Source: Candidatus Nealsonbacteria bacterium (GTDB taxonomy: Bacteria > Patescibacteriota > Minisyncoccia > Minisyncoccales > RBG-13-36-15). Taken from it: a stretch of 64,000 nucleotides of DNA. Below, piece after piece: positions 40,102 through 40,711 of this stretch. The stretch is from assembly GCA_011050465.1 (NCBI GenBank), contig DRFQ01000010.1, positions 15,514 to 79,513 of the forward strand, written 5' to 3'. The stretch's first letter is position 1; the number at the start of each line of letters is the position of its first letter. The notes beneath the pieces are model-generated. The model was not told where the DNA came from, searched no databases, and was given only the letters and a program-made list of their open reading frames with translations. The translations under genes were made by a program, and so were the position numbers.

Positions 40102-40193
40102 AGACCACGGATAATATCACGAATTTTCCTACTAATTTTCACAACTAAATTATTAGTGAGTATTCGTGGTAAAGTAGTGTTTATTAGTGGTTA
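40102..40193 (-). repeat. Intergenic TTAGTG/TTCGTG module (rpsF stop to ssb ATG)
   Basis: Gene-sense strand: tgaataataaccactaataaacactac...cacgaatactcactaat...attagtaggaaaattcgtgatattatccgtggtctATG. Same start and end words as 13450-13580. Confidence 0.75.
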
Positions 40194-40616
40194 TTATTCA
40201 CCCAATATTTCTTCTAATTTCTTCTCAATTTCTTTTAAATCAACTTTTTTTGGAGGCGGTTTAACGTCTTTTGCCTTGGAAATTATAGATAAAGGCCCGT
40301 AGATTTTGGTTTTCTCTGGTATTTTTTTGGCCAGAATAACGTAACGAAGGATTTGGCTTTCAGAAGTAAGTTTTACTTTTAGTTTTTCTATCTTCTGAGG
40401 ATCAAAATAGAAACTTAAAACATTTAAATAAGCTTGACTCTCTTTTTTTATTGGTGAAGCTAATTTCTTTTTGACTATTTTTGCTTGAGCTAAAGAGTTT
40501 TCAACTAAAGTTCCTTCGTTTTCTTTGATAAAGGAGAATATTTTTTCTGAAAAATTTTTAAGCTCTTCTTCGTTTAAATTTGAAGAAAGAAAATAAGTAA
40601 GTTCGTATAATTTCAT
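40194..40616 (-). CDS. rpsF: 30S ribosomal protein S6 (with C-terminal extension)
   Basis: 140 aa. MKLYELTYFL start and position upstream of ssb-rpsR. Sequence similarity judged by eye only. Confidence 0.6.
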   Translation of the reverse strand: MKLYELTYFLSSNLNEEELKNFSEKIFSFIKENEGTLVENSLAQAKIVKKKLASPIKKESQAYLNVLSFYFDPQKIEKLKVKLTSESQILRYVILAKKIPEKTKIYGPLSIISKAKDVKPPPKKVDLKEIEKKLEEILGE

Positions 40617-40711
40617 ACCATTGATTAATCACTAATTTTTTCACTGATATTCGCTAATGATTTGATTTATCGGTGATAATTAGTGATTTTAATTCGTGAT
40701 TCTATTAGTGG
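40617..40711 (-). repeat. Intergenic TTAGTG/TTCGTG module (ychF stop to rpsF ATG)
   Basis: Gene-sense strand: tataaccactaatagaatcacgaattaaaatcactaatt...attagcgaatatcagtgaaaaaattagtgattaatcaatggtATG. Confidence 0.7.

Follow-up and report, generated by a model that had tools for sequence, protein, structure and literature searches.

Bacterial genomes carry palindromic and word-like repeats of several described kinds. Repetitive extragenic palindromic (REP) sequences are found together with the REP-associated tyrosine transposases (RAYTs), the genes of which invariably stand between inverted REPs (Nunvar et al. 2010, PMC2817692). In the intervening sequence (IVS) of the Coxiella 23S rRNA, three tandem GACAGAT heptamers of variable copy number stand before an S23p open reading frame (ORF), inside a stem that is cut by RNase III (PMC4990558). 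Miniature inverted-repeat transposable elements (MITEs) and mosaic repeats such as ERIC/RU-1, BOX, Correia and the Rickettsia palindromic element RPE form a third group (PMC2759123), and the operators of MraZ, series of direct repeats at the mraZ promoter, a fourth (PMC8475190). Here we describe an element that resembles each of these in part, a module of phased CAC-containing words followed by the same words inverted, in a stretch of 64,000 nucleotides from a Candidatus Nealsonbacteria genome (assembly GCA_011050465.1, contig DRFQ01000010.1, positions 15,514 to 79,513), which was analysed over its full length and is called the window below.

Six module copies of 92-134 bp with inverted arms (one of them cut by the window edge) occur within these 64 kb. 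They are members of a palindromic family built from three forward and three inverted CAC words (3+3), and in related genomes such modules are present, absent or replaced at the same junction and copied between junctions. On balance we read them as non-autonomous, REP- or MITE-like members of the CAC-word family which lie in tight stop-start junctions and are co-transcribed as imperfect hairpins, maybe serving as processing or stability points; as part of the same reading we lean towards seeing them as cargo-less, AT-rich and expanded members of a family that spans phyla.

Word modules in stop-to-start gaps

Read in the sense of the flanking genes, a module begins with TAACCAC(C/T)AAT at or directly 3' of the upstream stop, continues with CAC(N)AAT words and then ATT(N)GTG words, and ends with GTGGT(Y), or a degenerate form of it, 1-8 nt 5' of the next ATG. 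The modules of the window, here numbered M1 to M6, hold three to six forward and three to five inverted words at a spacing of 10-13 nt. The 5' terminal word TAACCAC(C/T)AAT is present in M1-M5 and its 3' counterpart, ATTCGTGGTT or ATCCGTGGTC, in M1-M3, the 3' word being degenerate in M4 and M6. A first, sequence-only reading of this DNA had described CACTAAT and CACGAAT words followed by ATTAGTG and ATTCGTG, filling the gaps of co-directional genes with halves that are imperfect reverse complements. The word order is as it described, the filling of gaps holds for five of them, and the inverted symmetry is real, with pairing possible in several registers; cgtggtctATG does stand 5' of both pilC and ssb.

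The ychF/rpsF gap is filled by M4 (40617..40711, minus strand), recognised from its sequence, its inverted repeats and a full-length match at 40626-40702 to the covariance model R1 introduced below. In gene sense it runs TAACCACTAAT, CACGAAT, CACTAAT, CACCGAT, a loop, then ATTAGCG, ATCAGTG and ATTAGTG, and ends AATGGT-ATG. M3 fills the following rpsF/ssb gap (40102..40193, minus strand), with R1 matches at 40126-40193 (E 4e-4) and 40102-40172 (E 1e-3). The rpsF stop is a TAA, after which comes the element's own TAA, and the module reads TAA-TAACCACTAAT, later CACGAAT and CACTAAT, a loop, ATTAGTA, ATTCGTG and finally ATCCGTGGTCT-ATG.

On the plus strand M1, between pilB and a receiver gene (13453..13580; inverted repeats, R1 match 13489-13556), is an expanded form with six forward and five inverted words whose spacings of 10, 11, 11 and 13 nt from the centre outward are mirrored in both arms; the repeat unit, 13448-13585, includes TAATAA and the ATG. 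M2, between pilT and pilC (15017..15144, plus strand; R1 match 15052-15120), shares 96% identity with it over 138 nt (15012-15149 in M2), again including TAATAA and ATG, and the flanks of the two copies are unrelated. M6 lies between a small ORF and pilB (11564..11697, plus strand; inverted repeats, R1 match 11568-11630). As had been noted earlier, it contains a GC-rich hairpin; this nested structure, with a perfect 12-bp stem at 11649-11674, sets the last ATTAGTG word apart from the rest, but the copy is the weakest member (R1 E 0.03). The same layout, an array with a nested GC hairpin, recurs in the AT-rich metagenome contigs L037 and L091 (loci outside the window are given by L numbers).

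Only the left arm of M5 (1..40, minus strand) falls inside the window, with the words ATAACCACTAAT, CGCTAAT and CACTA..., and its membership is seen in a 77% direct-repeat match to 40681-40727 (family D14). This copy does not follow a stop, as the sequence-only reading had it, since a PrsW-like ORF (window 1-815, minus strand) runs in frame through it, ...KITTNQSANSNH, and leaves the window. L045 and L054 likewise have ORFs ending within arrays, with tails of the ...TTN(x)H type at the C-terminus. CACTAAT repeated three times at a 10-nt period gives TAA in all three frames, and ATTAGTG likewise gives TAG in all three.

Controls for enrichment were dinucleotide-preserving shuffles of the window. 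ATTMGTG has 35 matches in the window versus 10.7 +/- 3.5 in the shuffles (shuffle maximum 21), and 26 of the 35 fall inside the five stop-to-start gaps and bases 1-40, which together make up less than 1% of the window. The three-word pattern ACCACYAATN{3,5}CRCKAMTN{3,8}CACNAAT has six window matches and an expectation of 0 in the shuffles. Polarity tracks gene direction. All six copies (three on the plus and three on the minus strand) carry ACCAC(Y)AAT at their sense 5' end, AT(T/C)CGTGGT stands at the sense 3' end wherever the terminal word is intact (M1-M3), and the rule holds on both DNA strands inside one stretch of monotonic GC skew. Such gene-linked polarity agrees with a constraint tied to the transcript, perhaps no more than the supply of stop codons.

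The five gaps (40617-40711, 40102-40193, 13453-13580, 15017-15144 and 11564-11697) are co-directional stop-to-start intervals by the Pfam gene map, which also confirmed the names given earlier to the genes of both operons. On the minus strand lie ychF (40712-41755), rpsF (40194-40616), ssb (39643-40101) and, after ssb, rpsR (39363-39566); on the plus strand pilB (11698-13452), the receiver protein gene (13581-13949), pilT (13946-15016) and pilC (15145-16353). The genome is AT-rich (GC 0.34-0.43). Shine-Dalgarno (SD) motifs are nearly absent from the upstream regions of 45 window genes, and in many window genes TGnTATAAT-like boxes stand only 7-10 nt 5' of the ATG, which together suggest that leaderless mRNAs are widespread in this genome. 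Genomes of the candidate phyla radiation (CPR) are of about 1 Mb and have hardly any SD sites. The first gene of the module-rich ychF-rpsF-ssb-rpsR operon is ychF, which is reported to favour leaderless translation. RNase III, RNase J and PNPase are kept in CPR genomes (PMC12641178). In the window a mechanical 642-aa GTG ORF for RNase J (44397-46325) is over-extended, because it overlaps a tRNA gene (46250-46331) and the public gene call has 560 aa.

A cross-phylum family of 3+3 palindromes

Metagenome contigs were scanned with the three-word pattern, which was taken from the left arm of the window modules, and it matches at least 120 of them; among the matches listed GC content runs from 0.21 to 0.70 and many are from soils. 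In the canonical element the word (A)CAC-N-(A/G)AT stands three times with a 10-nt period, and three inverted words follow; the ends are (T)AACCAC...GTGGTT(A), and between the arms lies a loop whose length runs from 2 to about 190 nt or, in its place, an ORF of about 375 nt for a GxxExxY protein. Features that were not selected for recur among the matches listed, namely A-A before CCAC, almost always exactly three words, and the 10-nt period, and about 50 unique cases among them have an inverted three-word partner array 2-190 nt downstream, ending ATT(M)GTGGTT(A). Solitary F3 arrays without a partner also occur among these matches, as do many copies per contig, beside unrelated genes. Four canonical 3+3 elements stand on viral-classified IMG/VR contigs (L149, L154, L157 and L161) among 20 matches, the rest being mostly coding repeats, and a blastn comparison of the canonical element with PLSDB plasmids gave no match.

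An alignment of 34 canonical metagenome elements, none from the window, was made (A1), and R1 is the covariance model built from it, with 23 base pairs, searched with filters off. Its top ten matches in the window are the five complete modules on both strands, all full length, with best-strand E values of 4.7e-7 for M2, 5.8e-7 for M4, 7.4e-6 for M1, 4e-4 for M3 and 0.03 for M6 (0.14 on its weaker strand), and every window match outside these modules has E>0.5. It also finds junction modules in L143 (3e-8), L142 (3e-6) and L002 (1e-5). A single-arm nhmmer profile placed 8 of its 9 top matches in modules, but at E values of only 0.07-9, which are weak alone. Paired cells in A1 amount to 85.4%, versus 83.4 +/- 0.6% in shuffles, none of 500 of which reaches that value; covariation is 0.109 versus 0.087, reached by 2 of 500 shuffles, and in three A1 elements a change of CAC to CGC is matched by GTG to GCG. 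All modules fold better than their own shuffles, with z from -2.4 to -7.6 (-5.95 for M6).

The same arms may enclose a gene. In L103, L123, L128 and L071 an ORF of 127 aa fills the loop exactly, its start codon being made by the array itself (AAT+GG gives ATGGACACGAAT, read MDTN...) and its stop abutting the first inverted word. It encodes a GxxExxY protein (TIGR04256, E 2e-33) of the PD-(D/E)XK class PDDEXK_3, and the polarity of the arrays relative to the ORF in the four cassettes is that of the modules relative to their genes. Pairwise nucleotide similarity of the cassettes is 66-78% and breaks off at the outer limits of the arrays or no more than a few nt from them (within 2 nt for L103, L123 and L128), with unrelated flanks; from these boundaries the array-ORF-array unit of 428-438 bp is therefore a discrete one, found in different contexts. 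At three further loci a GxxExxY gene adjoins such arrays.

As an unselected sample, seven GxxExxY genes were collected by tblastn from plasmids of cultured bacteria, and CAC-type words stand beside five of them. Bacteroides finegoldii has 3+3 CACAGAG/CTCTGTG words in a unit that exactly fills the gaps of radA, GxxExxY and the next gene; Bernardetia has 2+3 of the same words around the gene; Gemmatirosa has a CGCGGAT 3+3 hairpin directly 3' of it; Treponema has ACACGGAT and ATCCGTGT, one on each side; and a Fusobacteria isolate has word arrays on both sides. The word variant changes with the lineage of the flanked GxxExxY gene. In L090 (2380-3380) three tandem elements of the form F3-(~110-150 nt)-R3 have mutually similar loops, which may carry a conserved small RNA or peptide, and there the GxxExxY gene lies between elements and not inside one.

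Related Nealsonbacteria show what becomes of a given junction. Between rpsF and ssb the same family is found in the window, L142, L143 and L001 (64-68% RpsF identity), a different word-hairpin in L138/L139 (AACATCT words, at 89% RpsF identity) and in L140/L141 (CTGAT words), and no module in L002, where the genes overlap. Between ychF and rpsF the window and L143 share the family (the L143 copy is similar, R1 E 3e-8), L140 and L002 have a different word-hairpin, of CTAAT words in L140 and of TACGAAT words in L002 (the latter also matched by R1, E 1e-5), and L139 and L001 have no module, with gaps of 7 and 12 nt. M3 and the copy that L001 carries between rpsF and ssb are collinear at 81% and differ by a compensatory change (ACGAAT:ATTCGT to ACGGAT:ATCCGT), and the core of M4 is found nearly unchanged at the rpsF/ssb junction of L142. 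The relatives and this shared core indicate, therefore, that modules are optional, turn over, are copied between junctions and are sometimes kept for long. The strains L004-L013, at 99.7-100% identity across the modules, give no micro-evolution signal; an apparent insertion in L011 was rejected as a scaffold gap only.

How the system compares with those described can now be stated. Its likeness to REP/REPIN-RAYT systems lies in short imperfect palindromes of high copy number which are extragenic and often right after genes (PMC2817692), in a small nuclease-type gene that stands between two inverted repeats as a transposon-like unit, in a repeat sequence that varies with the lineage of the flanked gene, and in the dominance of cargo-less doublets. 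The differences are that a CAC-word arm is three phased 7-8-nt words where a REP is a single GT(A/G)G-headed palindrome of 20-40 nt, imperfect in its pairing; that the ends are AACCAC, with no GTAG or GTGG head; and that the flanked protein is a GxxExxY PD-(D/E)XK protein of about 125 aa (TIGR04256) and not a Y1/HUH protein (Transposase_17), so that the parallel is one of analogy only. The 23S IVSs of Coxiella and Leptospira likewise have a terminal inverted-repeat stem that encloses a small ORF, with the start region of the ORF in the stem (PMC4990558), and tandem words 5' of the ORF, and the window too has a four-helix-bundle gene between word arrays (25461-26059). Unlike them, the modules lie in mRNA junctions between protein genes and not in helix 25 or 45 of 23S rRNA, have a period of 10-13 nt and not 7-8 nt, and are without an ORF.

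With MITEs and mosaic repeats (PMC2759123) the modules share their form as imperfect palindromes of 90-130 bp, presumably co-transcribed with flanking genes, their presence or absence at a given junction in related strains, and occasional in-frame read-through into protein (copy 1-40, L045 and L054). They have terminal inverted repeats, are shorter than 300 bp, hold no ORF and occur in several copies, and an ORF-carrying element with the same ends is found in other organisms. They differ in the phased word arrays inside them, in the lack of any target-site duplication found, in a family that spans phyla and not a genus or family, and in showing no similarity to named elements by Rfam or literature search. 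MraZ operators, finally, are also a direct-repeat series with a GTG(T/G) core (AAAGTG[T/G] in Mollicutes, PMC8475190), but each genome has only one such site, at the promoter of mraZ, with no inverted partner array and away from operon junctions and coding tails.

Insertion, RNA device or operator array

We regard the modules as insertion-type elements rather than a dedicated operon signal because the family crosses phyla with its GxxExxY cassette and because relatives have the same, a different or no module at the same junction. In a REP/REPIN- or MITE-like manner the modules would be copied into tight stop-start junctions, to which they would bring their own stop codon or codons at the 5' end while stopping a few nt short of the next ATG. 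A word-recognising protein would mobilise or homogenise the copies; the PD-(D/E)XK GxxExxY protein is the foremost candidate for this role, on the model of RAYT and REP. Within operons a module would be co-transcribed, its imperfect stem-loop bringing the upstream stop and the downstream start together, and could then be a site of processing or stabilisation, whether through RNase III cleavage of the kind shown for the related 23S IVS stems or as a barrier to 3'-exonucleases, which would matter in an almost SD-less and apparently leaderless genome.

Several observations weigh against this account. No target-site duplication was found at module ends or at the ends of the four cassettes, where a palindromic TTAA is indistinguishable from the end of a terminal inverted repeat, and tblastn found no GxxExxY gene in the window and its extensions (about 72 kb of this genome). 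Copies other than M1 and M2 are old and divergent, and some are conserved at the same junction over 64-68% RpsF identity, which could equally mean a host function. The similarity of left arms is partly by construction, A1 having been seeded by the left-arm pattern of the window, which does not apply to the right arms and the overall architecture, and some pattern matches are coding false positives (L056 and L072, which are tails of the type IX secretion system, and tandem coding repeats). Pairing is imperfect, too. The centre base of the words is unpaired in 12-22 of the 34 A1 elements, with outer-word mismatches usually T.C or C.C, and the spacers of A1 pair only about half the time. G.U and A.C are equally frequent in A1 (40 and 40), which gives no strand signal, and in seven of eight CPR CAC-word modules the fold of the antisense RNA equals or surpasses that of the sense RNA.

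A bolder extension of the insertion reading, which we offer tentatively as possible, is that GxxExxY and phased CAC arrays are a cross-phylum nuclease-repeat system like RAYT-REPIN, in which the arrays of 8-nt period around four-helix-bundle/S23p genes, the classical 23S IVS elements among them, would be a sister class, and the CPR modules would be non-autonomous members, domesticated for mRNA punctuation in a leaderless genome without SD sites.

Among the alternatives, the one that survives best is that the modules are a host-selected intercistronic RNA device for which mobility is irrelevant, although we think this rather unlikely. In one version the AACCAC.../...GUGGU hairpin would be an RNase III punctuation mark that gives (near-)leaderless monocistronic mRNAs; in another it would couple translation, the terminating ribosome melting the base of the helix and so freeing the next start. 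The exact fit of modules from stop to start speaks for such a device, as do their retention at rpsF/ssb in four lineages with compensatory change, the absence of SD motifs in a genome that looks leaderless, the strong preference for the sense strand of the sister CATTG hairpins in the same operon, and the retention in CPR of an RNase III that cuts the analogous IVS stems. Yet the device is dispensable, the same junctions being of 7-12 nt or the genes overlapping in close relatives, and it is replaced by an unrelated word-hairpin at 89% RpsF identity; a generic hairpin needs no conservation of words across phyla with GC from 0.3 to 0.7, in the CAC-word family the sense strand has no advantage in folding over the antisense strand, and helices as short and interrupted as these (3+1+3 bp) are poor classical substrates of RNase III. 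Of the long intercistronic stem-loop proposed by the sequence-only reading, the mirror-image arms, the full-length fit to the 23 pairs of R1 and the compensatory change in L001 stand, but its helices are imperfect, its word centres often mismatched and its sense fold no better than antisense. A search for RNase III signatures in the available loci found none, though these loci, about 10% of the genome, are too small a share for this to be informative.

It is improbable, in our view, that the words are double-stranded DNA operator half-sites for a multimeric protein, be it an MraZ/AbrB-type ring, an OmpR-type regulator or a nucleoid protein, with three phased sites per arm. The near-constant number of three words per arm at a period of 10 nt, one helical turn, the unconstrained central base, the non-complementary spacers and the solitary F3 arrays without a partner would all suit a protein, and Eraso and colleagues reportedly described, in 2014, a 10-bp phasing of the MraZ boxes of E. 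coli. The inverted words xxAGTG(T/G) also resemble the Mollicutes MraZ site AAAGTG[T/G] (PMC8475190), which is a lead only; for MraZ, boxes are reported from just one place in a genome, the promoter of mraZ (PMC8475190), and the window does not contain the mraZ locus. Here, many copies lie beside unrelated genes on one contig, the sites are inside operons with no promoter near, and arrays can be read as the tail of a protein or supply the cargo gene with its start codon; nor does an operator require mirrored spacer lengths or the co-variation of CAC/GTG to CGC/GCG. The array of half-sites suggested earlier does fit the phasing of 10 nt, the fixed count of 3+3 words and a central base that is free to vary; gene-specific regulation is unlikely because the modules stand in unrelated operons and the family spans phyla.

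That the modules are internal promoters, terminators or chance slippage products of low-complexity AT-rich DNA is hardly credible, AT-rich as the genome is (GC 0.34-0.43), given that promoter prediction found no sigma-70-type promoter, and a terminator search no intrinsic terminator, in gene orientation inside any module, that the evident promoters (TGnTATAAT 7-10 nt 5' of the ATG) and terminators (GC stem with T-run) of the genome look different, that word enrichment is far above dinucleotide-preserving shuffles, and that a covariance model built independently recovers the modules with E as low as 5e-7. The internal promoters of the sequence-only reading accordingly find no support; its TGATATTAT does exist 9 nt before the ssb ATG, but it lacks a -35 partner and recurs in none of the other copies.

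Rfam at the gathering score gave only tRNAs, and no rRNA, in the window and in 20 loci, and in E-value mode nothing on the modules, with spurious miRNA-hairpin matches only on the neighbouring CATTG hairpin. Literature searches on GxxExxY, PDDEXK_3, the word sequences and CPR repeats returned nothing relevant, and no published description was found of phased CAC-word arrays, of their link to GxxExxY or of CPR intercistronic repeats, though literature coverage is incomplete and an earlier description possible. The earlier remark that this is not a described element agrees with both searches. DnaA boxes, attC sites, a CsrA GGA array and intrinsic terminators were considered for the modules and rejected, as was an SD mimic: GUGAU or GUGGU directly 5' of the start might base-pair with the 3' tail of the 16S rRNA, but SD usage is absent from the rest of the genome.

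The CAC-word repeat is apparently undescribed and is in kind another intergenic palindromic repeat, unusual in its architecture, its cross-phylum spread and its association with two orphan families of small proteins. Few small paralogous families that still lack an explanation are as common in the annotation of bacteria as those of GxxExxY and of the 'four helix bundle / 23S IVS protein', and the origin and mobility of rRNA intervening sequences have been an open question since about 1990. If these cassettes and the abundant cargo-less hairpins have phased word arrays as their common chassis, both the orphan families and IVS mobility become testable, through binding or cutting of arrays by the GxxExxY nuclease and through movement of the units. 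Structured repeats exactly between stop and start also bear on the expression of internal operon cistrons in CPR. Genes receive stop codons and C-terminal '...TTN...' tails from the elements, which also cause spurious ORF extensions, so that recognising the elements improves annotation.

Sister word-hairpins and other repeats

The ssb/rpsR gap (39567..39642, minus strand) is filled by a hairpin of another class, with CATTG(C/T)TA and TAGCAATG words at an 8-nt period (repeat family D1). A second copy at 816-906 fills the gap between leuS and the PrsW-like gene, CATTG(C/T)TA words followed by TA(A/G)CAATG words also occur in L135 (14751-14878, a pil-cluster gap) and L138 (932-1015), and in L138 the class is again found at ssb/rpsR. 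Sense and antisense RNA fold at -30.9 versus -22.1 kcal/mol (39567..39642) and -30.5 versus -14.6 kcal/mol, the gain coming through G.U pairs, and this strong folding of the sense strand argues for an RNA-level hairpin.

The four-helix-bundle gene (TIGR02436, S23p-like; 25461..26059, plus strand) carries one frameshift and is bracketed by word arrays, about eight GTATTTNG words at an 8-nt period upstream and inverse words of the ATACGAGATAC type downstream, which encode the C-terminus of the protein. Judged by its sequence this unit is an ORF-carrying word-hairpin of a sister class, and L065 has a comparable arrangement of gene and words with GTTAWTNG words.

Hairpins of TACGAAT/ATTCGTA words are found at 28540-28653 of the window (the rpoB leader, with a nested GC hairpin), in L135 (13005-13165, at a second pilB/pilC pair) and in L002 (2915-2990, ychF/rpsF); they probably belong to the same superfamily as the modules, because R1 matches the L002 copy (E 1e-5). 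Two more word hairpins in co-directional gaps (window 9984-10091; L135 20499-20619) are one of CGCAGAT/ATCTGCG, which follows pilM, and one of TTCGAAT words, which precedes a gene for a peptidase M48. Lastly, a GC-rich hairpin family, AACCCC...(loop)...GGGGCAG, has five copies in the window (19816, 21708, 22954, 34974 and 35615), some inside called ORFs, and a related CAACCCTACGGGGAG stands at 11634-11648, 5' of the GC hairpin nested in M6.

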